The position numbers were made by a program, and so were the translations under genes. From an uncultured Candidatus Saccharibacteria bacterium (GTDB taxonomy: Bacteria > Patescibacteriota > WWE3 > UBA101185 > UBA10185), in NCBI GenBank assembly GCA_964615625.1, contig CAZTQT010000002.1:5555-69554 (forward strand): a stretch of 64,000 nucleotides of DNA. Reading direction: 5' to 3'. Under the pieces are notes generated by a model. It was not told the origin of the DNA. It ran no database searches and saw only the letters and a program-made list of their open reading frames with translations. Below are positions 1,291 through 62,248 of this stretch, piece after piece. How positions within the stretch are numbered: the first letter of the stretch is position 1; the number at the start of each line of letters is the position of its first letter.

Positions 1291-1977
1291 ATGAACGGAT
1301 CGCTAATAATATCAGGTGGGAATAGAGAAAATAGAGAAAACAAAATAATTGAAATAATAAATAAAGAAGAGGGAAAAGCTTTTGAAAAAATAAAAGATTT
1401 AGAAGATAAACCAGATATTTTTGTAATAAATCTTTTAGAAGGAGAGAGATCCATAGGAATATCTCAAACACGAGAAGGGATAAATTTTTTAAGAGAAAAG
1501 CCGTTTTCTTATGAAAAAAAGTTTTTGGTGGTCTTAAACGCAGAAAAAATGACTACCCAAGCTCAAAATTCTTTGCTAAAAACACTGGAAGAACCACCTA
1601 AACACGCACTTATAATACTTTCAACAAGAATTAGAGATCAACTGATAGCTACAGTGGTCTCAAGATGTAAAAATATAAACGTAAAAAGTGAAGATGATGG
1701 TATCAACGAAGATTTTGTGTCTCTTGAAAAAATATTGAAGATGAGCCTGGGTGAAAGAATTGATGTATGCTCAGAAATATCAAAAGAGGAAAAAGAGGAT
1801 GTTATAAACATGCTTGAAAACTGGTTGATAGAAGGAAGAAAAAATTTATTGAAAAAGCCAGAAAATGTTACAATAACAACAAATTTAAATAGAATAATAG
1901 AAATAAAAAGGGATTTGGAAAACTCAAATGTTAATGTTAAACTCTCTCTTGAAGCTTTGGTTTTAAGCCTTAAATAG
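1291..1977 (+). CDS. holB: DNA polymerase III delta-prime-like clamp loader subunit (short form)
   Basis: Motifs AQNSLLKTLEEPP and the SRC sensor, as in HolB/DnaX clamp-loader AAA+ lids. Only 228 aa and no intact Walker A, as is usual for delta-prime. Confidence 0.6.
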   Translation: MNGSLIISGGNRENRENKIIEIINKEEGKAFEKIKDLEDKPDIFVINLLEGERSIGISQTREGINFLREKPFSYEKKFLVVLNAEKMTTQAQNSLLKTLEEPPKHALIILSTRIRDQLIATVVSRCKNINVKSEDDGINEDFVSLEKILKMSLGERIDVCSEISKEEKEDVINMLENWLIEGRKNLLKKPENVTITTNLNRIIEIKRDLENSNVNVKLSLEALVLSLK

Positions 1978-2026
1978 ACTCTTTAGAACTGCCTTCCCTC
2001 TTGTTAAGGGGTTTGTAAATTAGTAG

Positions 2027-4021
<1,995 letters not shown>

Positions 4022-4028
4022 ATTTCTA

Positions 4029-4973
4029 ATGTATCCTTCTAATATGAGAAAAATAGGTGTAACACAAGCTGTATATACATCGGACATGGACTCACTTGCC
4101 TGTTCTATTGCTTATTCTGAACTTTTAAGATTAGAGGGCAAAGATGCAGTGGCGTATATACCAAAGGAGCCAGGAAGCAGTGTTACTGACGAAATTAAAT
4201 CTTGGGATTTTAGCTATGAAATAGAACCAAAGCCCGAAGAATTGGAGAATATAGACTTTGTTATGGTTGATACAACAGATCCTCACACATTTCCTAAATT
4301 TGTTACAGAAGACAAGATTGTTGAGATATATGACCATCACTACGGGTATGAAGATTATTGGAAACAAAAACTAGGAGAAAAAGCCACAATAGAAATGATT
4401 GGTGCATGTGCAACCTTAATATGGGAAGAATACAAAAAAAGAGGTTTTTCTGACAAAATATCTCAAGTGAGTGCAAAACTGCTTTATGCAGCTATTGTTT
4501 CAAATACTTTGAACTTCAAGGCCACAATTACATCTCCAAGGGATGTAACAGCTTTTCAAGAACTGTCTGTCAAATCAGGAATATCCAAAGATTGGATAGA
4601 AAAATACTTCATTGATCAAGAAGAATACATATATAAAAACCCAAGACAGGCCATAATAGATGACATAAAAATAATAGAATTCCCAAATTTAGGAAAGAAA
4701 ATAACAATAGGGCAAATAGAATTATGGAACAGTAAGAAATTTGTAACAGACTACAAACCTTTAATTAAAGAGATAATGGATAATTTTGGACACAAATTTT
4801 GGTTTTTCAACGCACCTTGTATAGCAATGGGTACTACATATGTTTTAGCTGAAGATGAGTACATAAAAGCAGTTCTTCAAGAAAAGTTTGATTTTTCCTT
4901 TGACGAGAACATAGGAAAATCAGAAAAACTTATAGAAAGAAAGGAGTTTGTTAAGGAAATTTTGGAACTCTAA
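4029..4973 (+). CDS. DHH-family phosphoesterase (NrnA/PpaC-like)
   Basis: DTTD and IYDHH motifs, about 314 aa. It sits between gyrB and gyrA. Confidence 0.5.
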   Translation: MYPSNMRKIGVTQAVYTSDMDSLACSIAYSELLRLEGKDAVAYIPKEPGSSVTDEIKSWDFSYEIEPKPEELENIDFVMVDTTDPHTFPKFVTEDKIVEIYDHHYGYEDYWKQKLGEKATIEMIGACATLIWEEYKKRGFSDKISQVSAKLLYAAIVSNTLNFKATITSPRDVTAFQELSVKSGISKDWIEKYFIDQEEYIYKNPRQAIIDDIKIIEFPNLGKKITIGQIELWNSKKFVTDYKPLIKEIMDNFGHKFWFFNAPCIAMGTTYVLAEDEYIKAVLQEKFDFSFDENIGKSEKLIERKEFVKEILEL

Positions 4974-5018
4974 AGGACTTCAAATTTACCTTAAATCTGC
5001 TAATATAATAAGGTTCAT

Positions 5019-7604
5019 ATGGCTAAGGAAACTCAAAAAACAGAAGAAACGGCGCCTATCGCCAACCCTAACATTTTACATACTGAGATAACTGAGGAAA
5101 TGCAGGGTGCGTATCTTGATTACGCAATGAGTGTTATTGTCTCAAGAGCCTTGCCAGATGTTAGAGATGGTTTAAAACCCGTTCAAAGAAGAATTATCCA
5201 CGCTATGCAAGAATCAGGAATGACTTTTTCTGGTAAATTACATAAATGCGCCAGTGTTGTAGGTAATGTTTTAGCCAAATACCATCCTCACGGAGACACT
5301 TCAGTCTACGACGCTTTAGTTAGGATGGGGCAAGATTTTAGTTTAAGATACCCACTTATTAAACCTCAAGGAAACTTTGGAAGTATAGATGGAGACCCAC
5401 CGGCAGCCATGAGGTACACAGAATGTAAACTTGAAAAAATAACTGATGAGCTGTATTCAGATATAGATAAAGATACTGTAGATTTTGAAATAAACGACCT
5501 TCAAAATAAGGAACCGGTGCTTTTGCCTTCAAACCTTCCTAATTTATTGTTAAATGGGGCAACTGGAATTGCTGTTGGTATGGCTACAAATGTACCACCA
5601 CATAATTTAGGTGAGGTTATAGAGGGCATAAATGTTTTAATAGATAAAGCTGATAATATAGGTACCGCACCAAAAAAAGACGATGAGGTACAAATAGCTA
5701 CCCTTGATTTTTCATCTGATGCTAATGTTGAAGATTTAACAAAATACATACTTGGACCAGACTTTCCAACAGGAGGAATAATATACGACCAGAAAGAAAT
5801 GATTCAAATGTACGCAACGGGGAGAGGAAGAGTTGTGACACGAGCAAAAGTAGATGTGGAGGAAACAAAATCTGGAAAAGTAAAGATTATAGTTAGTGAA
5901 ATACCGTACATGGTCAACAAATCAACACTTATATCAAAAATAGCCGATCTTGTTAAAGAAAAAAGAATTATTGGGATATCTGACATAAGAGACGAATCCA
6001 ATAAGGACGGGATAAGAATAGTTATTGAGTTAAAAAAAGATGCAGTAGTAAATAAGATTAAAAACCAACTTTTCAAATATACACAGTTACAAAATACTTT
6101 TAACTCTAATTTTGTGGCCCTTATTAATAACGAACCTAAGTTAATGCCTCTAAAGATGATCTTGGAAGAATTTATTAAGCACAGACAACATATAGTGGTA
6201 AGAAGAACAATTTATTTACTCAAGAAAGCTGAAGAAAGAGCCCATATATTAAAAGGTCTAAAAATAGCCTTAGATAACTTAGATGAGGTCATAAAGCTAA
6301 TAAGATCAAGCAAAGATGCAGATGCAGCAAAGGATGGGTTGATGAAAAAGTTTGGTCTTTCTGAGATACAGGCTCAAGCCATATTGGACATGCAGTTAAG
6401 AAGATTAGCTGCGTTAGAGAGACAGAAAATAGAAGATGAGTTAAAGCAAGTATTAGCAACAATAGCCGATTACGAGGATTTATTAAAATCACCAAAGAGA
6501 ATAATTGAAACAATAAGAAAAGAGCTGAATGAGATAAAAGAAAAATACGCAGATGAAAGAAAAACAAAGGTAATAAAAGGAAAGATAGGGGAGTTGAGTG
6601 ACGAAGATTTAATAATAAATGAGAAATGTATAGTTACAATATCAAAAAGTGGCTATATTAAAAGACTGAAAGAAACTACATACAAAAAACAGGGTAGAGG
6701 AGGAAAAGGTATTAAGGGACAAGAGTTAAGGGACGAGGATGCTGTTGATTCAATAAAGATATGTAATACCCACGATTGGGCATTTTTCTTCACAAATACA
6801 GGTAAAGTTTATAAACTAAGGATTTGGGATATACCAGAATCTTCAAGAAATGCCAAAGGTATTCCTTTAATAAACTTCTTAAGCATGAAACAAGATGAAA
6901 AGGTACAAGCATTCATCACAAAAACTATTGAGGAGCTAGAAAACAATAGTAAAAATGACTGTATATTCTTCACAACTAAAAAAGGTGTTGTTAAAAAGAC
7001 ATCCGTTGATGATTTTGAAAATATAAGAACATCGGGCATTATTGCAATAACACTAGATAAAGGTGATGACTTAACATTTGTTGACACTACAACAGGTGAG
7101 GACGATGTACTGTTAACAACAGCAATGGGTCAATCTATAAGATTTAGTGAAAAAGATGTTAGACCTATGGGGAGATCTGCAAAAGGTGTGGGCGGTATAA
7201 AACTATCAAAGAATGACGATATGGTTGTAGGTACAGTAATAATACCCAAAAAGAGTAAAGACGTAGAACTTCTTGTATTATCAGATCTTGGATATGGTAA
7301 AAAGACTCCAACAGAAGAATATAAAGTGCAAAAAAGATCGGGATCAGGGATACTAACTTACAAAGTTAAAGACAAGACGGGGAAATTAGTGTCTGCAAGG
7401 GCTTTAGAGAAAGGAAAAGATATAGACGTTCTTATTGCTACAACATCTGGAAAGGTAATAAGACTCTCCGCGGGTCAAATACCAACACTAGGAAGGGCTA
7501 CACAAGGAGTAAGATTAATAAAACTAGATGGAAATGACAAAGTAGCATCAGTGGCTCTAATGACAGAAGAAGAACAAGAAATGGCAGAGGAAGAAGAAAA
7601 TTAA
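5019..7604 (+). CDS. gyrA: DNA gyrase subunit A
   Basis: AAMRYTE active-site region, QRRIIHAM, C-terminal beta-pinwheel repeats and an acidic tail over 861 aa. Confidence 0.95.
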   Translation: MAKETQKTEETAPIANPNILHTEITEEMQGAYLDYAMSVIVSRALPDVRDGLKPVQRRIIHAMQESGMTFSGKLHKCASVVGNVLAKYHPHGDTSVYDALVRMGQDFSLRYPLIKPQGNFGSIDGDPPAAMRYTECKLEKITDELYSDIDKDTVDFEINDLQNKEPVLLPSNLPNLLLNGATGIAVGMATNVPPHNLGEVIEGINVLIDKADNIGTAPKKDDEVQIATLDFSSDANVEDLTKYILGPDFPTGGIIYDQKEMIQMYATGRGRVVTRAKVDVEETKSGKVKIIVSEIPYMVNKSTLISKIADLVKEKRIIGISDIRDESNKDGIRIVIELKKDAVVNKIKNQLFKYTQLQNTFNSNFVALINNEPKLMPLKMILEEFIKHRQHIVVRRTIYLLKKAEERAHILKGLKIALDNLDEVIKLIRSSKDADAAKDGLMKKFGLSEIQAQAILDMQLRRLAALERQKIEDELKQVLATIADYEDLLKSPKRIIETIRKELNEIKEKYADERKTKVIKGKIGELSDEDLIINEKCIVTISKSGYIKRLKETTYKKQGRGGKGIKGQELRDEDAVDSIKICNTHDWAFFFTNTGKVYKLRIWDIPESSRNAKGIPLINFLSMKQDEKVQAFITKTIEELENNSKNDCIFFTTKKGVVKKTSVDDFENIRTSGIIAITLDKGDDLTFVDTTTGEDDVLLTTAMGQSIRFSEKDVRPMGRSAKGVGGIKLSKNDDMVVGTVIIPKKSKDVELLVLSDLGYGKKTPTEEYKVQKRSGSGILTYKVKDKTGKLVSARALEKGKDIDVLIATTSGKVIRLSAGQIPTLGRATQGVRLIKLDGNDKVASVALMTEEEQEMAEEEEN

Positions 7605-7634
7605 TATAAACCCTGTCATTAGTTATTACAATTA

Positions 7635-8423
7635 ATGGATTTCCACGAAATCACTCAATTTGAGAGAGAAATTTATAATAAAGGCATAAAATACATTGCC
7701 GGTATAGATGAGGTGGGTAGAGGACCTCTGGCTGGTCCTTTTGTTGTATCAGCAGTTATTTTAGATCTTGAAAAAATATTTAGCTCTAAATTTCAAAATA
7801 ATCTCAGAAATATAAAGGATAAAAATATTAGATTTCCTACCAATATAGGAAAAGACAGCATATTGGACAATAAATTAATACGGAAAGAGGATCCAACAAA
7901 TAACGACGTCTCGTTAGATAAAAATGGGCTTGTAGAAACCTACATGTATACACAAATAAAAGATTCTAAAAAATTATCTGCAAAAAAGAGGGATTATTTA
8001 TCTGAATTTATTAAAAAGGAAGCTTTAAGCTATACAATAGAGGTCTTTGAACCGGAAGACATAGATAAAACAGGTATTACAAAACTAACTCAAGAAGCTT
8101 TTTTTAAATCTATAAAAGACTTAAATATAAAAGCACAATATGTACTCACAGACATGTTTGAGGTTGATAAAATAACAAAAGAACATCAGAGAAACATTAT
8201 AAATGGGGATAGTAAAAGTATAACAATAGCTTCAGCCAGCATAATAGCTAAGGTATTTAGAGATAATATTATGATAGAAGCCGGTAAAAAATACCCAAAG
8301 TACGGTTTTGATAAACATAAGGGATATGGAACAAAAGCACACATGGAAGCTATTTATAAATTTGGGCCATGTGAGATACACAGAAAAAGCTACGAGCCCA
8401 TAAAAAGTATATTAAAAAAATAA
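7635..8423 (+). CDS. rnhB: Ribonuclease HII, with an internal insertion of about 65 aa
   Basis: GIDEVGRGPLAGPFVVSAVIL, DSKKLSAKKR and a C-terminal KHKGYG…HRKSY. Confidence 0.85.
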   Translation: MDFHEITQFEREIYNKGIKYIAGIDEVGRGPLAGPFVVSAVILDLEKIFSSKFQNNLRNIKDKNIRFPTNIGKDSILDNKLIRKEDPTNNDVSLDKNGLVETYMYTQIKDSKKLSAKKRDYLSEFIKKEALSYTIEVFEPEDIDKTGITKLTQEAFFKSIKDLNIKAQYVLTDMFEVDKITKEHQRNIINGDSKSITIASASIIAKVFRDNIMIEAGKKYPKYGFDKHKGYGTKAHMEAIYKFGPCEIHRKSYEPIKSILKK

Positions 8424-8458
8424 AAAGCCCGGCAAAATCAAAATGCAGGGCTTTTGTA
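8423..8458. terminator. Bidirectional hairpin terminator between rnhB (+) and the 8469 gene (-)
   Basis: An aaaagccc / gggctttt stem flanked by A- and T-runs. Confidence 0.5.
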
Positions 8459-8468
8459 GGTAGGTAGG

Positions 8469-8837
8469 TTAGCTTATTTTCTCCATAAGAATAGTGCCGT
8501 AAGAAGCATTTCTATTCTTAGGATCCATACTCACCACCTTATAAATATCCTCTTCCTTTCTACCTTGCATGAGCAAGTGCTCACGACAAAATGGTGCTAA
8601 AAACACAGGTTTCTTAATAGCATCTTCTTGCGGTTTCCTAAAAAGAGGGGAACCAGATAATTGGTAACGTATCCTTATACTATCTTCCTTAGATGAATAA
8701 AGAACATCACTAAGCCTTAAAGTGGCTAATGGCTTTCCGTCACCATCAATCTCATTTGATACTACATGCTCTGTTTTAACAGTAGTTGTAGGATTCCATC
8801 GCCAAAAATAAAAATCTACATCTTTATCTTTTCCCAT
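8469..8837 (-). CDS. Hypothetical protein
   Basis: 122-aa ORF with no recognisable motif, adjacent to the recombinase gene. Confidence 0.45.
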   Translation of the reverse strand: MGKDKDVDFYFWRWNPTTTVKTEHVVSNEIDGDGKPLATLRLSDVLYSSKEDSIRIRYQLSGSPLFRKPQEDAIKKPVFLAPFCREHLLMQGRKEEDIYKVVSMDPKNRNASYGTILMEKIS

Positions 8838-8842
8838 TTCAA

Positions 8843-9229
8843 TTAAAAAACCTTTCTCGCTATATTTTCCAATACAATAGAATAGTTTCTATTATATTTA
8901 AGCCAAACCTCAGAAATATAATACCCTGATAAATCACGTATATGAGTAATACCTGTTTCCTGACAACATCCTTGTGATGAAAGGTAATTTATGCACCCCA
9001 TAAGTACGTAATACCCATGATCCACATCCAATATTTCAAACAGTGTTGGAAATACTTTAGTATTTGGAGTACTACAATCTACTATTAATGTCCCTAATCT
9101 GGTAACCGGATCATCAAAATGAATACCTGTATATTTAATTAGAGCAGAAGGTGTCACAGCATCAACTTCAGGGTAAATGCAAAGAGTAGCCGCCTCAATT
9201 CCTTGCAGGGTCTTATAACCTCTAATCAT
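8843..9229 (-). CDS. Hypothetical protein, Cys-containing
   Basis: 128-aa ORF, 5 bp from the next gene, so a likely two-gene operon. Confidence 0.45.
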   Translation of the reverse strand: MIRGYKTLQGIEAATLCIYPEVDAVTPSALIKYTGIHFDDPVTRLGTLIVDCSTPNTKVFPTLFEILDVDHGYYVLMGCINYLSSQGCCQETGITHIRDLSGYYISEVWLKYNRNYSIVLENIARKVF

Positions 9230-9391
9230 TTTTCTCTCCTTTTACTGATTATTTTTTTCATTCTAGCATCAACAAAAAGTTAAGACAATGTTGGATAATT
9301 ACATGTAATTTGTATTATATAACCTATAGTAGGATTGGGGGTAAAATCTAAGATAATCTAAAATAAGAGGTGCGCAAACATGCAGGGAAAC

Positions 9392-10417
9392 CTACCCAAG
9401 GAAAGAGACCTCATCACTTTTGTCTGAATCTTCCTCTTCTAAACTACCATCCGAAATAATATCTTTATGATACTTTCTATGTATATCCCGCAACTGTTTA
9501 TTTGTTATATGAGTATATATTTGAGTTGTAGAAACATTAGAATGTCCTAACATCTCCTGCACTTCACGCAAATCAGCTCCCTCAGAGAGCAAGCCTGTGG
9601 CGTAAGTGTGTCTTAATGTGTGCGGGGTAGCATCAACGGATATTCCAGATCTTTTTACATACTTTTTAATAAGCCTTTGGACACTTCGTGGAGTAATTCT
9701 CAAAGACTCACCGTCAAAATCGTTTTCTTGCATTTTCTTACCAGAATACCTTATAAACAAAGGGACATAAGGATCAGCACGGGTAAAAAGGTATTTTTTA
9801 AGCCATTTTATAGCCTCAGGTGACAGGTAAACTGTACGAGCTTTCCTACCTTTTCCTACAACTGTAAACTCTCCAGTCTCTAAATTTACCTCATCTCTAT
9901 TTAACGCAACAAGCTCTGACACACGTAGACCTGTACTGTAAAGTGTTTCAATAATAGCTTTATCTCTAATCCCAGACTTTTTATCTAAATTTTGAACTTC
10001 AAACAATTTCTTCATTTGTTGTGTATTTAGAACCTTTGGCACACGGTCTTCAGACTTACCCAAAATTATTTTTTCTGGAGAAAAGGCCTCTATACCTTTT
10101 TCAATGACTAAGTATTTCAAAAACGCCCTAATAGCGACAAGAAATGTCTTTTGGGTAGACCTCTTAAATTCACTATTTGACTTAGAACTAATTCTACGAT
10201 TCAAATTGACTCTGTATTTCTTAATCAAATCGTCATCTATGTCTGAAATTGAAAAAACATCTTTTTTGAGGAAATCTTCTGACCACTGACCAAAATCAGT
10301 TAAATAAAAATGGTACATCTTTATAGTGTTTTGTGAGAGATTTCTTTCAAGTTCACAAAATTCAAGATACTCAAGTACAACATCATCAAATTTTAAAGAT
10401 AAATTAATCTTAGCCAT
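9392..10417 (-). CDS. Tyrosine site-specific recombinase, XerC/XerD-like
   Basis: C-terminal catalytic HTLRHTYATGLL…LGHSNVSTTQIYTH with the nucleophile Tyr, an N-terminal core-binding SAM-like domain, and an acidic C-terminal tail. Confidence 0.85.
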   Translation of the reverse strand: MAKINLSLKFDDVVLEYLEFCELERNLSQNTIKMYHFYLTDFGQWSEDFLKKDVFSISDIDDDLIKKYRVNLNRRISSKSNSEFKRSTQKTFLVAIRAFLKYLVIEKGIEAFSPEKIILGKSEDRVPKVLNTQQMKKLFEVQNLDKKSGIRDKAIIETLYSTGLRVSELVALNRDEVNLETGEFTVVGKGRKARTVYLSPEAIKWLKKYLFTRADPYVPLFIRYSGKKMQENDFDGESLRITPRSVQRLIKKYVKRSGISVDATPHTLRHTYATGLLSEGADLREVQEMLGHSNVSTTQIYTHITNKQLRDIHRKYHKDIISDGSLEEEDSDKSDEVSFLG

Positions 10418-10885
10418 ATTTATTAAAATTATACTTCATATAAAAGCTTGTGAAAAATCACAATGTATTAAAATCTGGAGAGGCCTACCATCTCACATAT
10501 GTATTTTCATGCAACTGCAAATGATTTCAAGATAAACAACTATACTTAAACGGTTAAAGTAACGTCAAAAAATTAAAAACGCCTTAAAATCGATTCTAGA
10601 GCCTAATACCTACTTTTTGTTGTTGTTACAACTTAAACACAGACAATCACTAAACAAAAATAATAAAACAGGGTCGGGAAGAGGTTAAAAATTTACGGGA
10701 TAACCGCATATAAAGAGGAGCGGGAAATAGGTACCAGAAAAACATAGATATATAAATGAGGTAGAGAAATTAAATTTTCATTGAATATATTTTTAATAAA
10801 TAAATCTAAAAAATAATCATTATAATTTTCTTTATTATTTTTGTGAAAAATAACAGTGGAGAGGTGATCTTGGTTTATACACAAG

Positions 10886-10913
10886 ACGTCGTATAATGTA
10901 TGTTTAACGACAT
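10886..10913. promoter_or_regulatory. Candidate dif-like Xer recombination site
   Basis: ACGTCGTATAA-TGTATG-TTTAACGACAT: two 11-bp arms matching 8 of 11 as inverted repeats around a 6-bp TGTAT(G/A) spacer. This resembles the dif consensus (…ATAA TGTATA TTATGT…) and lies about 470 bp from the recombinase gene. Confidence 0.4.
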
Positions 10914-11126
10914 CATGTTAGGGGTAAAGCCATAAAACAACATATAAGGGAAGTAGACGGATTATGACACTAGCTATGAGAGAGAAGTGAAATAAACGCA
11001 CGTTAATTAATTAAATTATTTTCTCCTTTTATTTCTATTTAATTAAATTATTTTCCCTCAATTAAATTCCTCTAAATCTGTTGTAAGTTTTTTTGCAGTT
11101 ATTAATTTACTTTCCCGCATACCAAG

Positions 11127-11135
11127 TTATCCACA
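11127..11135 (+). promoter_or_regulatory. Perfect DnaA-box consensus TTATCCACA, single copy
   Basis: Exact 9-mer match. A 1-mismatch TTATACACA lies at about 10874. Confidence 0.3.
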
Positions 11136-11150
11136 TCCCCTACTCCGGAA

Positions 11151-11324
11151 AACTATGACAAACTTACAGAAAATAACTATGACAATTCTACAGAGAAATA
11201 TATATGACAATCTTACAAAGAAACGTGATTTTTTACATTATTTAATATAAAAATACTATAAGATACTATAAGTTATACAAAGTTAGCACTCCAACCTATA
11301 GTATGACAAACGTACCGAAGAAAA
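11151..11324. repeat. Iteron-like direct repeats, four copies of about 23 bp
   Basis: Three tandem copies at 11151–11223 and a fourth at 11297–11324, in a 1 kb ORF-free region. Consensus is TATGACAA-N4-5-TACAGA(A/G)AAA. Confidence 0.6.
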
Positions 11325-11435
11325 CCCTAATAAAAATTGCACTATCCCCTTCCCCACTTCCCCATTATACCCTGTTGTTAAAACAAAAAGTAAGATTTTA
11401 TGAACTTAAAAAGCAAAATTAAATGTCTAAAATTT

Positions 11436-12317
11436 CTAGAGTCTAAAAAACAACATTAATATAAAAAATACTAAGATAATCAAAAGATACCTCATTATAA
11501 TACCGCGGGATAAATCGTTTTTTAAATGTAAAGAGATGTAATTTAGTATAAAAAGCATCATTGAGGAAACAAACAAAGCTCTTAGGAAATCCTCTGATGG
11601 AAAAAAGGAAACTGCAAAAGAAGATATGTAAATAATAAAAAATGAGAAAGCACACAGATATAATCTCTCCCCTAAACTGGTCTTTTTTGCATCAGGCTCG
11701 TATTCATGTATTTTTAATTGGTAATAAGTGAATAAAACTGAAATTGTTGATGCCAAAGCAGATTGTATAAAAACTACCACGTTTAGTTTAAATATACCTG
11801 CAAGAAGTGGGATAGCTACAATAATTTGAAGTATCTGACTCCATGTGACTGCTACCCTAAATAAAGGAATTATCTCTTCCCTATCGTGGACTACCAAAAA
11901 TATATTATCTGCAAGAGAAACTAAATAATACAGTCCTGAGAAAAAAATAATTACAAATATTTTAAAAACAGACCCCAAATTTGGATAAAAAGTTAATGAA
12001 AGTAACGCCCCAGACACAACACTGATAGGCATTATTGTACTAAACAAAAAGTTTTCCTTTGTAACACCTGGGTAATGTGAAATAAGAACACCGGAAAATA
12101 CTAAAAAAATCCCTATTATTACAGTTAAAAATAGGTTTTGTTTAATCACTCCCTGGGTAAAAGTGTATATAAACACAGCTATAAGTGCCGACTGAATGAG
12201 ATACCTGTTTCTTTTTGCTATATCAGAACTAACTATTTTTAGCATTTTTCTTTTTAACCTTCTCGGCAGGATGTTTTGGGATGAATGCTGTTTCCCAATC
12301 ATCTTTAACACTACCAT
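11436..12317 (-). CDS. Polytopic membrane protein, hypothetical
   Basis: About 8 predicted TM helices. The start is uncertain: the longest ORF overlaps ruvC by 89 bp, and an alternative Met at 12245 overlaps by 17 bp. Confidence 0.5.
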   Translation of the reverse strand: MVVLKMIGKQHSSQNILPRRLKRKMLKIVSSDIAKRNRYLIQSALIAVFIYTFTQGVIKQNLFLTVIIGIFLVFSGVLISHYPGVTKENFLFSTIMPISVVSGALLSLTFYPNLGSVFKIFVIIFFSGLYYLVSLADNIFLVVHDREEIIPLFRVAVTWSQILQIIVAIPLLAGIFKLNVVVFIQSALASTISVLFTYYQLKIHEYEPDAKKTSLGERLYLCAFSFFIIYISSFAVSFFPSEDFLRALFVSSMMLFILNYISLHLKNDLSRGIIMRYLLIILVFFILMLFFRL

Positions 12318-13459: not shown

Positions 13460-14149
13460 ATGAGTTTGAGCCTAGCAGTACTAACAAAGAAGGCAATAGA
13501 CGCATCACTAAAGCAAAAATGGGATGAGGCTATAGAATTGAATTTAGAAATACTAAAGATTTATCCAAAAAACACAGATACAAAGATAAGATTAGGAAGA
13601 TGTTATATACAAAAAAAGGACTTTAATAAAGCAAAAAGGATATTTAAAGAAGTTCTTGATGTGGATCCTATAAATCCAATAGCATTAAAAAACTTTGATC
13701 TAGCCAAAAACCAGAAAACCGATTCTAATGTATCAGGGTCTCATGTAAACACAAAATCATTACTAAAAGAGCCTGGGAGCAGTCACGAGGTATCTGTAAA
13801 TACGCTCTCTAAAGGTATTAAGAAAGAGGATTTTGTATCTGGAGATGAGCTGACATTTAAACAAAAAAAGAAAGAGATAGAACTATATCGTGATAAAAAA
13901 GGTAAGAAAATATTAGCAGGAAGCATAAACGATGATTATACGGTGCAAAAAATATCCTGTGCCTTGAGTAAAAAGATAAATATAAAAATAATATTCATAA
14001 AGTGGAAGGGTTCTGAAATGACAGTGCTAATAAAGGCGTCAGCACCAATTTTTAAACCCGACAAAGTAGAAATAAGACCTTACCTAAGAAAAGGAACCAT
14101 AGAAGAACCGGAAATGGACATGGAACCAGAAGAGGAAGAAACTGAATAA
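13460..14149 (+). CDS. TPR-repeat-containing hypothetical protein
   Basis: N-terminal TPR-like helices and an acidic C-terminus. Confidence 0.45.
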   Translation: MSLSLAVLTKKAIDASLKQKWDEAIELNLEILKIYPKNTDTKIRLGRCYIQKKDFNKAKRIFKEVLDVDPINPIALKNFDLAKNQKTDSNVSGSHVNTKSLLKEPGSSHEVSVNTLSKGIKKEDFVSGDELTFKQKKKEIELYRDKKGKKILAGSINDDYTVQKISCALSKKINIKIIFIKWKGSEMTVLIKASAPIFKPDKVEIRPYLRKGTIEEPEMDMEPEEEETE

Positions 14150-14945: not shown

Positions 14946-17483
14946 TTACTCCTCTATATTTTCTAAATTTATATTTTCAGGATTATCTAAATTTTTTTCA
15001 GCATACTCTTGAGCTATAGCCATACCCTTATCAAATTTTGTTGTAAGCCATTTATTCACTCTGCCTTCAACTTTTTCCCTTGGCACTCCGTATTTTTCCC
15101 TACTTCTTTGTAAAACTTTCTCACGGTTAGATGTTTTAGGTACAATAAAGTCATCTGCCCATGGGACTATAATTTTAGCCGAAAATGGATGCGATGTCAT
15201 TCCATCAACCATTAGTTTAGTATATATCTGAAATCTTTCTAAAGAAATTATATCTTCTTCCGTAAAGTATGGTGCAAACTCCTTAGATAATTCTTTAGCA
15301 TCGGGAGCACCTAAGGAAAATGTCATTATAGTACCAACGTTTCCATAAACAGCCTTAAGCAGATTCTCCGGCAATTGTCCCGTAAACTGATGGGTTAAGT
15401 TTAAACCTAACTTATATTTTCTTGATTCAGAAAGTATCTCTTCAAAACTTCCGGTAGCAAAGTTTTGAAACTCATCTACATAAAGATAAAAGGGTCTTCT
15501 TCTATCGTTTGGTATTTTGGCCCTTTGGAGAGCGTAGAATTGAATTCTAGACACCAATAAAGCCCCAAGTAGGTTAGCATTATCCTGACCTATCTTACCC
15601 TTTGAAAGGTTCATTAAAAGTATTTTCCCAGAATTCATGGCATCCCAAATATCTATAGTTGATCTTCTTTGACCAAGTATATTTCTTATTGTTGTAGAGG
15701 CTAAAAATCTATTTACCTTGTTTTGAATTGGCGATATGGCTTCTGTCACCAGTTTTTGATTGCCTTTCATTTGTTTAAATTCTTCGTCCCAAAACTTTTT
15801 AACCAACGGGTCTCTCACACTGTGCAAAATATAATTCAAATAATTTTGATCTTCTAATAATCTGGTAATTCCTAGCATTGTAGTACCTGGAACTTCTAAT
15901 AAAGTCAGGACGCAGTAATTTAGCAAGTATTCAAGTCTAGGTCCCCATGAAAAATCAAAATGTTGTTTTATAGCTGAAACAAGACCAGAAGCCATGAGGT
16001 TTTTTTGAGATTGATCGTCTATCTCAAGAAGATTTAGTGCAACCGGAAATTCAGTATCAGAAGGATCCATGTATATTACATCCTCTACTCTATTATCAGG
16101 AATTCTGTCTAAGATATTTTCTATAGTCTCACCATGGGGATCTAATATTGCGGCCCCCTGACCATTAGCTATATCTTGAGACAACATTGTTACAAATAAT
16201 GACGACTTACCTGTTCCTGACTTTCCTATGACGTAAAGGTGCCTTAATCTATCATCGTTATCGTTTCTTATTCCAAACTTAACAGATTTATTTCTATATA
16301 ATGTTTCACCTATGTATGTACAGTTCTCAGTGGGTAAATTAGCGGGTGGTTCTGATTTTCTTGAGTAAACCCATGAAATATTGGGAGTATCTATATTAGA
16401 AAGAGGAAAATGAAAAATTGTCGCTAACTCCTCTGTATTAAGTATCAAACACCTGCTAGGATCAAATTCTCTATTCTTGTAATCACTTAGAGCCGCAACT
16501 TTGTTACTTTCCTCACTACTAGAAAAACTATTTAAACTTGTTCCAGAAAACTGATTTAAAGAAGCTATTATCCCTCTCATATTAGTATCTACTCTATCCA
16601 TACTTGTAGAGGCTGATACAACTCTGACAACAGTCTCAAAACCCATTCTTGATAATTTATTTTCAATTGATTTTAACTCCGTCTCTTTTGCAGCACTTAT
16701 TTTAGGAGGAGTGGTAATATATTTTCCTTTAACTTCCGTTCCTTGGGCAGGTGTTGTAAAAAGACCTGTTATGACTCCGGAGACTATTTCTACTATTTCT
16801 TTTTTAATAACGTCAAAAAATATGTTGTAAGCACTTCTTGTTTTTCCTGGATCGGCACCTTCCCTCACTTTATTTACATAGTCAAAACCTTCTTGTTGCC
16901 ATTTATCTGCAACAGGTCTGACTAAAACCTGAAACCAAACTTCTTCCCCACCTAATAAGTTTGATACAGAAGATGACATTGAAGAAATAGGATCAGTTTC
17001 AAAATCTCTAAAACTCTTAATTGGATAAAAATCTGGTTTTGTAAAAGAAATTGTAGATACCTTATATTCTGTGTGAGAAGTATTTATAGCTGGAGTATAG
17101 TCAGAAACTACGGATATATGAGCATCTGGGTATTGTGCGTATATCTGACTTTCAACAAACTTTAAGATATTTGATGGAGTTGTAACATAAAAACGTATCC
17201 CTCTATCTCCTGATGCAACCATCTCAAAAGACACACGCTCCTGCATTGCTGAGTCATCTTTTAATAAACCGTGTAAAGCAGAAAACATATTTTCCGCGCT
17301 TAGAGAAGATGCTTGAATATCTCTCTTTTGATCATCGTTTCTACTTAGCTGTACTTCCAGAACTTCTACATTACTATCAGAAAGTTTTTCCTCTGTTTTT
17401 TTAGATTTTTTGATTTTTAAATACACACCAAACAGAACAAGTCCTAAAGCAATAATTATTATTAAATAATCTCCTAAATTCAT
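14946..17483 (-). CDS. Membrane-anchored P-loop ATPase of the HerA/FtsK/VirB4 (DUF87-like) superfamily
   Basis: N-terminal TM helix, a non-ATPase domain of about 400 aa, then Walker A VIGKSGTGKSS, DPHGE and Walker B LYVDEFQNF. Confidence 0.7.
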   Translation of the reverse strand: MNLGDYLIIIIALGLVLFGVYLKIKKSKKTEEKLSDSNVEVLEVQLSRNDDQKRDIQASSLSAENMFSALHGLLKDDSAMQERVSFEMVASGDRGIRFYVTTPSNILKFVESQIYAQYPDAHISVVSDYTPAINTSHTEYKVSTISFTKPDFYPIKSFRDFETDPISSMSSSVSNLLGGEEVWFQVLVRPVADKWQQEGFDYVNKVREGADPGKTRSAYNIFFDVIKKEIVEIVSGVITGLFTTPAQGTEVKGKYITTPPKISAAKETELKSIENKLSRMGFETVVRVVSASTSMDRVDTNMRGIIASLNQFSGTSLNSFSSSEESNKVAALSDYKNREFDPSRCLILNTEELATIFHFPLSNIDTPNISWVYSRKSEPPANLPTENCTYIGETLYRNKSVKFGIRNDNDDRLRHLYVIGKSGTGKSSLFVTMLSQDIANGQGAAILDPHGETIENILDRIPDNRVEDVIYMDPSDTEFPVALNLLEIDDQSQKNLMASGLVSAIKQHFDFSWGPRLEYLLNYCVLTLLEVPGTTMLGITRLLEDQNYLNYILHSVRDPLVKKFWDEEFKQMKGNQKLVTEAISPIQNKVNRFLASTTIRNILGQRRSTIDIWDAMNSGKILLMNLSKGKIGQDNANLLGALLVSRIQFYALQRAKIPNDRRRPFYLYVDEFQNFATGSFEEILSESRKYKLGLNLTHQFTGQLPENLLKAVYGNVGTIMTFSLGAPDAKELSKEFAPYFTEEDIISLERFQIYTKLMVDGMTSHPFSAKIIVPWADDFIVPKTSNREKVLQRSREKYGVPREKVEGRVNKWLTTKFDKGMAIAQEYAEKNLDNPENINLENIEE

Positions 17484-59676: not shown

Positions 59677-61890
59677 CTATACTAAAGAAGTAAGGGTTTC
59701 ACGCTTCTTTTCATTTTTCGGCATGGGGTTAGACCAACTACTCCAATCACAATCAGGGTATTTACTACAACCATAGAAAGTTTTTCTTTTTGCTTTTTTA
59801 ACAACCACATCACCATCACCACATTGTGGGCACTTCATGCCTATTTTTTCTAAATAATTTTTGGTTGTTTTGCATTTTGGATAATTACTGCAAGCTAAAA
59901 ATTTACCAAATCTCCCCTGTCTTAAGACAAAGACACCGTCTTCACAATTGGGACACTTTCCATAATCAACATTCTGCTCTTCTTCTGAACCACCCGTCTC
60001 GTTACTTAAAGGTTTGGCATATTTACAATCAGGATAACCAGAACAACTTAAAAATTTTCCATATTTACCAAGTTTAAAAACCAACACTTTCCCACAATCA
60101 GGACATTTTTCGTCACTTTCTCCAAGATTTGTCACATCTCTTTTGCTTAAAATTTGTTCTTTTTCTAATAATTCTTTCTCAAAAGGTTCGTAGAAATTTC
60201 TTATAACAGGCACCCACTCCTTGTCTCCAGCTGCTATGTCATCCAAGGACTTCTCCATCTCAGCTGTAAATCCATAATCAACAACATCCTGAAAATGCTC
60301 TACTAGTAAATCGTTTACAACATAAGCAACATCTTTTGGAACAAAATATTTTCCATCTTTTTCAACGTATCCTCGAGCTTGGATTGTAGTTATTGTAGGA
60401 GCGTATGTTGAAGGTCGCCCCACACCTAACTCTTCCATTTTTTTAATTAAAGTTGCATCACTATATCTGGCAGGAGGTTGTGTAAAGTGTTGCTCAGATG
60501 TAATTGACTTTAAATTTACACTTTCTCCTTCTGAAACATTTGGCATTATGGATCCTTCAACGTTCTCATCTTCACCTGATTCAGAATTTTGCCCTATACC
60601 TAAAAACTTACCTACTTCTAACCACCCACTAAATTTTATTTGAGATCCTGTAGCTCTAAACAAATATTTCTTTTGAGATAAAACATTAACAGATGTTTGA
60701 TCGTATATTGCTGGGGTCATTTGACACTCAATAGATCTTTTCCAAATTATTGAATAAACTTTCAACTCATCTTCTTTTAGTTTTTTACCACTTTTGCTCG
60801 GTATAAAAAGGACATTAGTCGGTCTTATCGCTTCATGAGCTTCTTGTGCGTTCTTTGACTTTGTTTTATAAAAATTAGGTTTTTCAGGAATAAATGAAGG
60901 TCCAAAATTACTTTTAATAAAATCTCTAGCACTATTAACAAAAGCTGGAGATAAATTTAAAGAGTCTGTCCTATGATAAGTAATATAACCATGTTCAAAT
61001 AAACTTTGAGCAGCTGACATTGTTCTTTTTGCTGTAAATCCAAAAACATTAGACATTGTTTGTTGAAGTGTTGAAGTACTTAAAGGAGCGTAGGGCTTAC
61101 TACTTCTCTCTGTCTTTTTCACAGAATCTATAACAAAACTATCTTCTTTTAAATCCTTTTCTATTTTTTGAGCACTTTCCTTATTAGGTATCTCAATTTT
61201 CTTTTTGTCTTTTTCAACTAAAGAGGCTTCAAAGTTGCTTTTGCTTGAAACTGAATTAAATAGCCCTTTCATACTCCAGTATTCTTCTGATTTGAAAGCA
61301 TCTCTTTCTCTTTCTTTTTCAACAACTAATCTAACAGCAACACTTTGAACTCTCCCTGCTGAAAGACCATACATTACCTTTTTCCATAATAATGGAGAAA
61401 GTTTATAACCAACAAGTCTATCTAACACTCTTCTTGCCTGTTGTGCATCTACTAAGTCTGTATTTATGCTACCTACATTTTTGAAAGCTTCTTTTATAGC
61501 ATTCTCAGTAAGCTCATGAAAAACGACCCTTCCAAATTTCACGTCTTTTTTTTCATCTGTTTTTGTTTTTTTACTTTTTGATTTTTTGCCTGATGGTTTA
61601 AGAAGATATTCTAAATGCCACGCTATTGCCTCTCCTTCTCTATCAGGGTCTGTTGCTAATATTATCTCATCAGCGTCTTCGGATTTTTGTTTTAAGTTAG
61701 AGATAGTTTTTTTAGCTTTTGGAGGAACAATGTACTCTGGTTCAAAATTTTTTTCAACATCTACGCCAAGACCACTTTTAGGGAGATCCCTTATATGGCC
61801 CATGGAAGCTTCTATTATGTAATCTTTCTTAGGTAAAATCGCAGAAAGAGTTTTAGCCTTTGTTGGTGATTCTACTATTACTAATTTCAT
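59677..61890 (-). CDS. topA: DNA topoisomerase I
   Basis: Toprim N-terminus LVIVESPTKAK, an active-site Tyr region, and C-terminal C4 zinc ribbons. Confidence 0.9.
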   Translation of the reverse strand: MKLVIVESPTKAKTLSAILPKKDYIIEASMGHIRDLPKSGLGVDVEKNFEPEYIVPPKAKKTISNLKQKSEDADEIILATDPDREGEAIAWHLEYLLKPSGKKSKSKKTKTDEKKDVKFGRVVFHELTENAIKEAFKNVGSINTDLVDAQQARRVLDRLVGYKLSPLLWKKVMYGLSAGRVQSVAVRLVVEKERERDAFKSEEYWSMKGLFNSVSSKSNFEASLVEKDKKKIEIPNKESAQKIEKDLKEDSFVIDSVKKTERSSKPYAPLSTSTLQQTMSNVFGFTAKRTMSAAQSLFEHGYITYHRTDSLNLSPAFVNSARDFIKSNFGPSFIPEKPNFYKTKSKNAQEAHEAIRPTNVLFIPSKSGKKLKEDELKVYSIIWKRSIECQMTPAIYDQTSVNVLSQKKYLFRATGSQIKFSGWLEVGKFLGIGQNSESGEDENVEGSIMPNVSEGESVNLKSITSEQHFTQPPARYSDATLIKKMEELGVGRPSTYAPTITTIQARGYVEKDGKYFVPKDVAYVVNDLLVEHFQDVVDYGFTAEMEKSLDDIAAGDKEWVPVIRNFYEPFEKELLEKEQILSKRDVTNLGESDEKCPDCGKVLVFKLGKYGKFLSCSGYPDCKYAKPLSNETGGSEEEQNVDYGKCPNCEDGVFVLRQGRFGKFLACSNYPKCKTTKNYLEKIGMKCPQCGDGDVVVKKAKRKTFYGCSKYPDCDWSSWSNPMPKNEKKRETLTSLV

Positions 61891-61966
61891 ATAAACTTGA
61901 TAAATGATACCACGAAGAATTTTTTGTCAACATTTTTGAACTTAAAATTTTGCAATTACAACCAAT

Positions 61967-62248
61967 TTGTCATACAATATACCCTATAGAGATATAGAAA
62001 AAGGAGAGAAAATGGTACTACAATTTATTAAAAACCACCCTGGATATGTGGTAGCGATTGTTCTATTCGTTTTGGATGTGGTTTTCATATACTTAACATT
62101 CAAAACATCACCGTCAGTTGTAAATGGTAATAAGAAAGAAGACAGTGATAAAATACCGTTAGTAACATTAATAAGCGCCTGGGCAAGTATGATCTTAGGA
62201 TTTTCTTGGATGGTCGCATTAGTGGTAACGTGGATTTTTAAACTATAA
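61967..62248 (+). CDS. Small membrane protein, hypothetical
   Basis: Two TM helices over 93 aa. Confidence 0.4.
   Translation: MSYNIPYRDIEKGEKMVLQFIKNHPGYVVAIVLFVLDVVFIYLTFKTSPSVVNGNKKEDSDKIPLVTLISAWASMILGFSWMVALVVTWIFKL

Follow-up and report, generated by a model that had tools for sequence, protein, structure and literature searches.

The 64-kb stretch of DNA analysed here (64,000 nucleotides of an uncultured bacterium of candidate division WWE3, hereafter referred to as the window) carries, next to each other, a gene for a Xer-type tyrosine recombinase (xer) and a repeat-rich spacer of about 1 kb free of open reading frames (ORFs). The spacer contains a palindrome with 11-bp arms and a 6-bp centre (hereafter referred to as the 28-mer). 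Gene, spacer and palindrome had all been recognised in an earlier reading of the sequence alone (the sequence-only reading), and their coordinates and sequence check out (Table 1). The closest relatives of the recombinase all came from WWE3/Patescibacteria assemblies, with 66–100% identity. The locus was compared with 36 related genome loci, the WWE3 loci being gathered by a scan of one genome per species, and with 89 metagenome stretches containing the site; the addition of 80 metagenome contigs gave 116 loci. The spacer module described below was compared in 80 unique versions. The proposal that a recombinase gene lies beside its probable recombination site was borne out by both the genome loci and the metagenome stretches.

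Read in the sense of xer, the 28-mer is ATGTCGTTAAA-CATACA-TTATACGACGT, with arms complementary at eight of 11 positions. The dif-type core noted by the sequence-only reading, ATAATGTAT, is indeed common to the window site and Escherichia coli dif (GGTGCGCATAATGTATATTATGTTAAAT; PMC2731167). As a feature of a single sequence, the palindrome is no better than chance: 148 palindromes of 11-6-11 geometry with at least 8/11 complementary positions were counted in the window, versus 151 in shuffled sequences, and 12 in the spacer alone, and many random 28-mers scored higher than its 16/28 match to E. coli dif. The 28-mer rises above chance because it is conserved across relatives. In an alignment of 10 spacers from close relatives, the most conserved block was exactly the 28-mer. 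Information content was near background up to position 0, high from positions 1 to 28 (position 2 being free), and at background again from position 29, and 13 columns of the 28-mer were invariant. The site had between zero and three mismatches in 33 of the 36 related loci, despite the divergence of the protein encoded next to the spacer, memb293, to about 40% identity between these genomes.

These data bear on one alternative, that the palindrome is a chance feature or the hairpin of a non-coding RNA, for which it can be said that the palindrome alone is not above chance and that a 7-bp stem can be drawn. Conservation with exact borders in more than 110 independent loci argues against both versions. 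Among 28 site variants, the loop was invariant, 18 of 196 cells were unpaired and there was one double change, a count reached by 55 of 500 shuffles. Arm changes that are uncompensated around an invariant centre point to recognition of the DNA by a protein rather than to an RNA hairpin. At gathering scores, neither the window nor eight related loci yielded an Rfam family, and the spacer yielded none at E ≤ 10. With Rfam empty and no covariation among the variants, a non-coding RNA was rejected, and this alternative as a whole is extremely improbable.

Each of the genome loci covering the region (36/36) contained the 28-mer once, always with the same orientation and 240–970 bp upstream of xer. 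A pattern scan of metagenomes, based on DNA only, retrieved the 89 stretches, with one match each. In all 62 of these stretches with sufficient room, a xer orthologue was found downstream of the site, in the same orientation and 261–1875 bp away, so that the adjacency of gene and site, a hallmark of XerS and XerH, holds throughout this set. Over all loci, the site lay 240–1875 bp upstream of xer. It occurred once per locus in 116 loci and once in the window, and 88 of the 89 metagenome matches were in the same context. The 28-mer is a sharply bounded, strictly xer-linked DNA element with one copy per locus, and it is almost certainly a real and functional site. No canonical dif was found elsewhere in the window. 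The sequence GTCGTATAAT was rejected as a generic promoter motif, as it has a single exact copy in the window.

The geometry of the site is that of a classical dif (28 bp, two 11-bp arms, 6-bp centre). The outer seven nucleotides of its arms (A-N-G-T-C-G-T) agree at 6–7 of 7 positions and the inner four differ; the corresponding outer agreement in dif sites recognised by XerC and XerD (XerCD) is 2–5 of 7. The left arm and centre resemble proteobacterial XerC-arm dif sequences, and on the + strand of the window they match Nitrosomonas europaea dif at 9/11 and 5/6 positions, respectively (sequence from PMC2731167). An XerD arm distinct from the XerC arm in its outer part, as in classical dif sites, is lacking.

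The recombinase has the domain structure of a simple, Xer-family tyrosine recombinase, with a SAM-like core-binding domain and a catalytic domain and no arm-binding domain. Pfam recognised Phage_integrase (2.5e-42) and Phage_int_SAM_1, the catalytic set R-K-HxxR-H-Y is complete, and residues 16–314 could be aligned with E. coli XerD (1a0p), including the motifs LRVSE, GKGRK, HTLRH, GHS and IYTH. The NCBIfam scores were 249.7 bits for XerD and 244.9 bits for XerC, below the equivalog cut-offs of 330 and 335, 210.7 bits for XerA, just under the cut-off of 220, and 123.6 bits for XerS (cut-off 267). Matches in the PDB were obtained with E. coli XerD (1a0p, 3e-44), Pyrococcus abyssi XerA (4a8e, 6e-38) and XerH (5jjv, 3e-14). 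There was also a weaker match to integron integrases. Orthologues across WWE3 are 66–88% identical. By these sequence matches, the protein is XerC/D/XerA-like, and not XerS- or XerH-like, with no preference for XerC over XerD. A subgroup ‘Cand’ of Xer-related recombinases from candidate phyla has already been named (PMC8138268); no description of a dif site for these recombinases was found in the literature searched. No second Xer was found in the 64-kb window. The similarity of the outer arms, the missing XerD arm and the equal XerC and XerD scores fit one protein acting on both arms, and a single-recombinase system is plausible, if unproven, on the basis of the sequence.

Of the characterised systems, XerA/dif of P. 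abyssi (PMC2958812) shares with the WWE3 locus an XerC/D-like recombinase, presumably the only one in WWE3, a 28-bp site of 11-6-11 geometry with near-palindromic arms and a TATAA inner arm, and conserved A+T-rich flanks. The WWE3 lineage is, however, bacterial, its site always lies beside the gene, whereas dif of Thermococcales is not next to xerA, and the two sites are identical at only 11/28 positions; moreover, arm symmetry in WWE3 is outer rather than inner, and the WWE3 site is attached to a module with a DnaA box and iterons. The XerCD/dif system of E. coli and other proteobacteria (PMC2731167) is similar in site length and geometry, in the XerC-arm-like sequence of one arm and the centre, and in the protein, which is closest to XerD. 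It differs in that the WWE3 site lacks the conserved XerD arm TTATGTTAAAT, has arms that are alike, with nothing suggesting two binding proteins, lies next to the recombinase gene, and is away from any skew switch within 10–20 kb; in XerCD sites, the pattern of arm symmetry is reversed, the outer part being the one that differs. The sequence-only reading had likened the layout to XerS/difSL of streptococci and XerH/difH of Helicobacter and Campylobacter (PMC5357621, PMC1914069). This likeness stands for the arrangement of gene and site as one module with a single presumed recombinase, but it does not extend to the protein, which falls outside these families, or to the site: difSL is 31 bp long with an 11-bp centre, whereas the WWE3 site has 28 bp and a 6-bp centre, nor does the latter have the difH sequence. 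Finally, XerL/dif of Legionellales (PMC9765430) is, like the system proposed for WWE3, a lineage-specific, single-recombinase system for dimer resolution, recognised through a conserved palindromic site of about 30 bp and a mobile element carrying the site; XerL is, however, a different, larger recombinase, and the mobile-element evidence in WWE3 consists of one short contig.

On this evidence, the 28-mer is very probably a Xer core site. We propose that it is the recombination core site of the adjacent Xer, a dif-type site serving chromosome dimer resolution, and possibly the resolution of catenanes, in WWE3; we give this reading a probability of about 0.7, and dimer resolution is probably carried out by an XerA-like single recombinase. 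We infer that Xer binds the site, that one recombinase suffices and that its role is dimer resolution. If the system works like XerA/dif, XerH/difH and XerCD/dif, each 11-bp arm would be bound by one Xer monomer through the shared outer A-N-G-T-C-G-T, two sister sites would synapse as a tetramer, and strands would be exchanged across the 6-bp centre CATACA. Gene and site are inherited together next to yebC-ruvC. A half-site over the −10 box of xer may provide autorepression, and the DnaA-box, iteron and A+T-rich module of the spacer may supply accessory or control sequences.

The half-site was identified from promoter and half-site scans. In about 13 close relatives, upstream alignments and the half-site scan revealed that ATGTCGTATAAT, identical to one arm of the core site, overlaps the −10 box of xer; in the window, this half-site is degenerate. 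Half-sites just upstream of xer were recorded at loci L001-L011, L029, L031, L078, L084 and L104, and A-type half-sites near the xer start at L027, L113 and L033. In distant relatives, the TAGAAT block conserved upstream of xer is found 25–40 nt before the ATG. The occurrence of an extra half-site over the −10 box in many lineages suggests autorepression. It also lends itself to another reading, in which the 28-mer is no recombination site and serves as the operator of a dimeric transcription factor, or of an Xer functioning solely as a repressor, controlling xer or its neighbours. The 28-mer is palindromic, intergenic and upstream of xer, as an operator would be, and it is related to the half-site that covers the −10 box in many genomes. 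Its distance from xer is, however, variable (240–1875 bp) and it lies upstream of both predicted promoters, the 6-bp centre is conserved like the arms, the geometry is exactly 11-6-11, and the 28-mer is also found on an unrelated phage-like contig. We consider an operator distinctly unlikely.

That contig (L132, Ga0172381_10105050, 2,339 bp) carries the 28-mer at 1465–1494, with one central mismatch, and has nothing else in common with the WWE3 loci. The only homologues found for its ORFs were on short contigs crowded with small ORFs of the same strand, one of which encodes an excisionase-type helix-turn-helix protein (HTH_17). From its sequence, L132 looks like a phage-like, candidate mobile element with a dif mimic exploiting Xer, this being a single case. 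Lineage-specific orphan ORFs of 50–190 aa are found beside xer in an otherwise rigidly syntenic region, both between the 28-mer and xer (L009, L020, L024, L033, L058, L059, L063, L068, L084 and L109) and between xer and rnhB, where orf128 and orf122 of the window are confined to their own population. These ORFs matched no Pfam or PHROG family, save for a weak double-zinc-ribbon match in one, and are not shared between lineages.

The variable orphan ORFs on both sides of xer would be accounted for if xer were the integrase of a mobile or cassette-capturing element and the 28-mer its attachment site; the presence of the site on L132 and the weaker match of the protein to integron integrases are in line with such a reading. 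It is nevertheless very improbable: throughout the class, the locus, its orientation and the genes flanking it do not vary; every locus has one site, second or flanking copies and attC-like repeats being absent; XerD, XerC and XerA are the nearest matches of the protein; and the orphan ORFs share no family.

The order orf845, yebC-ruvC, memb293, a spacer of 0.8–1.6 kb free of ORFs, xer and the rnhB-gyrA block was the same in 34 WWE3 genomes. The coordinates of the features in the window are given in Table 1. In all WWE3 loci, the gene for the 845-aa ATPase keeps its synteny with yebC-ruvC-xer; the protein had no sequence match in the PDB and may be a DNA translocase. Many assembly contigs stop in the spacer or no more than about 150 nt from the 28-mer (L060, L078, L102, L112, L128 and L130; also L001, L011, L016 and L031), which may be due to a very high A+T content or to heterogeneity of the population at the site. 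Six independent assemblies of the population of the window (L037, L038, L048-L051) all break 18–25 kb past xer, to the left of the window start, suggesting a repeat or a variable region there.

Table 1. Features of the xer locus in the 64-kb window (module positions, where given, are in the sense of xer relative to the 28-mer)
Feature	Position	Strand	Description
holB	1291–1977	+	Start of the counter-oriented block
Counter-oriented island holB, gyrB, DHH, gyrA, rnhB	1291–8423	+	Conserved block
orf128, orf122	within 8469–9229	−	Two orphan ORFs between rnhB and xer
xer	9392–10417	−	341-aa tyrosine recombinase
Spacer	10418–11435		1018 bp, 28% G+C, without any ORF of at least 64 aa
xer −10 box (TATAAT)	10428–10439	−	Inside degenerate half-site ATGAAGTATAAT; promoter scan, half-site scan
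TAGAAT promoter-like block	10582–10601	−	CTCTAGAATCGATTTTAAGG; conserved upstream of xer
CCCGACCC	10671–10678	−	Part of the C-run, T-rich 300 bp on the xer side; in 27/80 modules, at +200 to +250
28-bp core site	10886–10913		+ strand ACGTCGTATAA-TGTATG-TTTAACGACAT; 11-bp arms, 6-bp centre
A+T-rich stretch	10991–11055		Between DnaA box and core site; AATTAATTAA palindromes, 20-nt direct repeat
G-run, exact DnaA box, GC cluster	11110–11146	−	DnaA box TGTGGATAA at 11127–11135 (TTATCCACA on +); GC cluster TGCGGG
Three direct iterons	11154–11217	−	TGTAnGnTTGTCATA; 24–25 bp period
AGTGCTAA, CTATAG palindrome, fourth iteron	11283–11316	−	
G-run block	11345–11363	−	GGGGAAGTGGGGAAGGGGA, including GGGAAGGG, which conforms to the E. 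coli KOPS consensus GGGNAGGG and is directed at the core site
memb293	11436–12317	−	Polytopic membrane protein, 293 aa
ruvC, yebC	beyond memb293	−	
TPR gene	13460–14149	+	Pfam-supported
262-aa protein gene	past the TPR gene	−	
845-aa ATPase gene (orf845)	14946–17483	−	N-terminal membrane helix; HerA/TrwB/VirD4-like P-loop domain; Walker A GKSGTGKS

The unexpected part of the locus is the origin-like module attached to the site. In the sense of xer, with the 28-mer at position 0, the 80 unique modules have a G-run block at about −450 and, at about −380, CTATAG palindromes around AGTGCTAA. One to five direct iterons (cTGTAnGnTTGTCATA) then precede a G-run and the DnaA box, at a median position of −221 (interquartile range, 209–228), with a GC cluster 8–13 nt past the box. 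About 200 bp of A+T-rich DNA, with AATTAATTAA near −120, separate the box from the 28-mer, and from +30 to +300 there are about 300 bp of C-run, T-rich DNA. The DnaA box is exact in 72/80 modules and has at most one mismatch in 79/80. The iterons (214 copies over the relatives, with the core TTGTCATA) are spaced at a mode of 23–25 bp, and none is inverted. Box and 28-mer are separated by a far steadier distance (interquartile range, 209–228 bp) than are the 28-mer and xer (240–1875 bp).

Several candidate interpretations of these elements were rejected. A cluster of DnaA boxes was ruled out, as boxes with one mismatch numbered 27 in the window versus 22 expected, and conservation in relatives is limited to the exact box at 11127. 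The iterons are confined to the spacer, excluding a genome-wide motif, and a small protein gene in the spacer was ruled out because its open frames are not conserved and the iteron spacing is no multiple of three. The basal unwinding unit of bacterial origins combines one or more DnaA boxes and an A+T-rich element with three or more DnaA-trios and a spacer of at most 16 bp that contains a GC cluster (PMC8287927); the modules have the exact box, the GC cluster at +8 to +13 and the A+T-rich stretch, and the 3-nt periodicity of DnaA-trios was not evident in them. With the cer and psi plasmid Xer sites and iteron plasmid origins, the locus shares a core site flanked on one side by conserved DNA resembling protein-binding sequences at a fixed distance, and direct iterons, a DnaA box and an A+T-rich region within a few hundred bp. 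Unlike these systems, it is a vertically inherited part of the chromosome without a Rep gene next to it, and boxes for ArgR, PepA or ArcA were not recognised. The module may consist of cer/psi-type Xer accessory sequences, or may be a DnaA-controlled locus or the origin/terminus junction of a unidirectionally replicating chromosome.

The sequence-only reading had proposed a candidate replication terminus at about 10 kb, in part because gene orientation converges there. The convergence at 8.4 kb is confirmed, although the statement that all genes from 8.5 to 25.9 kb are on the − strand is inexact, as the TPR gene is on the + strand. Raw GC skew also changes sign at about 8.4 kb, where the genes converge. 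Both the convergence and the switch are due to a conserved counter-oriented block of 7–10 kb (holB-gyrB-DHH-gyrA-rnhB): left of holB, genes of a type IV pilus/type II secretion system operon are on the − strand again, as they are in a 925-kb genome, and the skews at third codon positions (GC3 and AT3) do not switch, so that the convergence marks a head-on island rather than a boundary between replichores. In the window, coding-strand GC3 skew was about +0.25 for the − genes right of the site and about 0 for the + genes; the five + genes on the left, with about +0.04, resemble these + genes. When pooled over 27 genomes (±10 kb), GC3 skew upstream of the site was +0.132 for genes on the xer strand and −0.128 for genes on the opposite strand; the corresponding values downstream of xer were +0.147 and −0.059. 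G thus predominates in the xer-sense strand on the two sides of the site, irrespective of how the genes are oriented, and the AT3 skews agree. In the genome of the window, polarity did not change between −8.7 kb and +72 kb; in the 925-kb genome, it was maintained over the 20 kb beyond xer. The walk towards the terminus extended about 20 kb past xer, and no switch was seen within about 20 kb on the downstream side in these two genomes. Under the usual leading-strand rule, a G-rich xer-sense strand implies that forks pass the site towards xer, and the terminus would lie further downstream. The site is on the leading-strand path, at least 10–20 kb before any replication-polarity switch, and its assignment to the terminus is not supported at this resolution, although it may still lie within the terminus region.

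The conserved block of essential genes holB, gyrB, gyrA and rnhB is head-on to the inferred direction of replication in the 27 genomes. Gene orientation also diverges at about 62 kb (61890–61967; L145:1-10000), with topA running leftwards and def, fmt and genes for large DUF285 surface proteins rightwards; an origin there was ruled out, as GC3 polarity stays the same. Where xer lies in contigs of 768, 853 and 925 kb was uninformative as a clue to the terminus without an origin; in JBPOHV010000001.1 (925,229 bp), the site is near 690 kb.

FtsK-orienting polar sequences (KOPS) were sought with the E. coli consensus GGGNAGGG. KOPS-like motifs point to the site from both sides, with counts, pooled over the loci, of 97:18 upstream and 4:127 downstream, and of 40:0 and 3:18, respectively, in intergenic DNA. 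In same-strand downstream genes, the ratio was 3:3, and most downstream motifs either follow the coding strand of the counter-oriented block or occupy positions conserved between orthologues. GTAGGG in opposite-strand genes gave 11:1 upstream and 5:14 downstream. A KOPS-like polarity directed at the site is hinted at by the intergenic and GTAGGG counts alone and is suggestive only, as gene strand and orthology are confounding. Besides the G-run block of Table 1, a further G-rich motif fitting the consensus, at 11136–11146, points towards the 28-mer.

The module and the constant polarity together raise the question of an origin. The spacer could be, or could derive from, an iteron/DnaA-box replication origin, with the 28-mer as an origin-linked multimer-resolution site such as rfsF, the site of ResD, in plasmid F; in an extreme form, the WWE3 chromosome would be replicated unidirectionally, with origin and terminus coinciding here. 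Origins of iteron plasmids have a layout resembling that of the spacer module. The one-way iterons, exact DnaA box, GC cluster and 200 bp or so of A+T-rich DNA, which keep their positions in 72–79 of 80 modules, are as such a reading would have them, and constant strand polarity through the module is a prediction of a unidirectional origin/terminus junction. The neighbours gyrB, gyrA, holB, dnaB, dnaX and recR also speak for it, these genes being near the origin in Firmicutes. The layout is, in addition, like the box-spacer-unwinding unit (PMC8287927). The polarity switch expected at a bacterial oriC is, however, absent, and identical GC3/AT3 polarity on the two sides excludes a bidirectional origin. 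There is a single DnaA box without clear DnaA-trio periodicity, and no dnaA, dnaN or Rep gene was found within ±10 kb in 147 loci (the search for DnaA being a weak one). Complete candidate-phyla genomes have been reported, in a general statement, to have bidirectional skew patterns (PMC7111523), and a position in the middle of a replichore explains the skew equally well. We regard an origin as unlikely.

The same coupling can be read as a composite, class-wide locus for chromosome maintenance, in which Xer recombination would be tied physically to an origin-like module that contains iterons and is bound by DnaA. This is a speculative and rather unlikely reading. In one version, a DnaA- or iteron-protein-dependent accessory region may license dimer resolution without FtsK, away from the terminus; in another, replication may proceed unidirectionally from a plasmid-type origin, with dif at the origin/terminus junction.

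Several of the observations weigh against a dif-type site for dimer resolution. There is no terminus signature, GC3/AT3 polarity being unswitched around the site. The right arm matches the conserved XerD arm TTATGTTAAAT at only 4–5 of 11 positions, and the canonical XerD arm is absent. The tighter coupling of the 28-mer to the DnaA box than to xer suggests that the site may be a functional part of that module. Duplicated or flanking sites, such as those left by integrated elements, were not seen in 116 loci, and the 28-mer was not found in viral contigs. Neither FtsK nor DnaA was found in the 147 loci, in a weak search. The missing polarity switch is not fatal to a dif role, as the published distance between dif and the skew maximum ranges from 0.2 to 96 kb, with 39 kb for E. 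coli and 33 kb for Rickettsia prowazekii, whose genome has 1.1 Mb (PMC2731167).

For the Candidate Phyla Radiation, chromosome dimer resolution was without a description in the literature searched, and the locus provides an exact 28-bp site and a recombinase for a whole class. The shared outer halves of the arms, the lack of an XerD arm and a protein equidistant from XerC and XerD bear on the origin of two-recombinase systems from one-recombinase ancestors. The 28-mer, with its one copy per locus, could serve as an anchor for orienting and checking WWE3 assemblies and for finding elements that hijack Xer, for which there is one candidate contig. The constant association of the site with a DnaA box, iterons and A+T-rich DNA, without a switch in polarity, may reveal a new form of Xer control or an unusual arrangement of replication.

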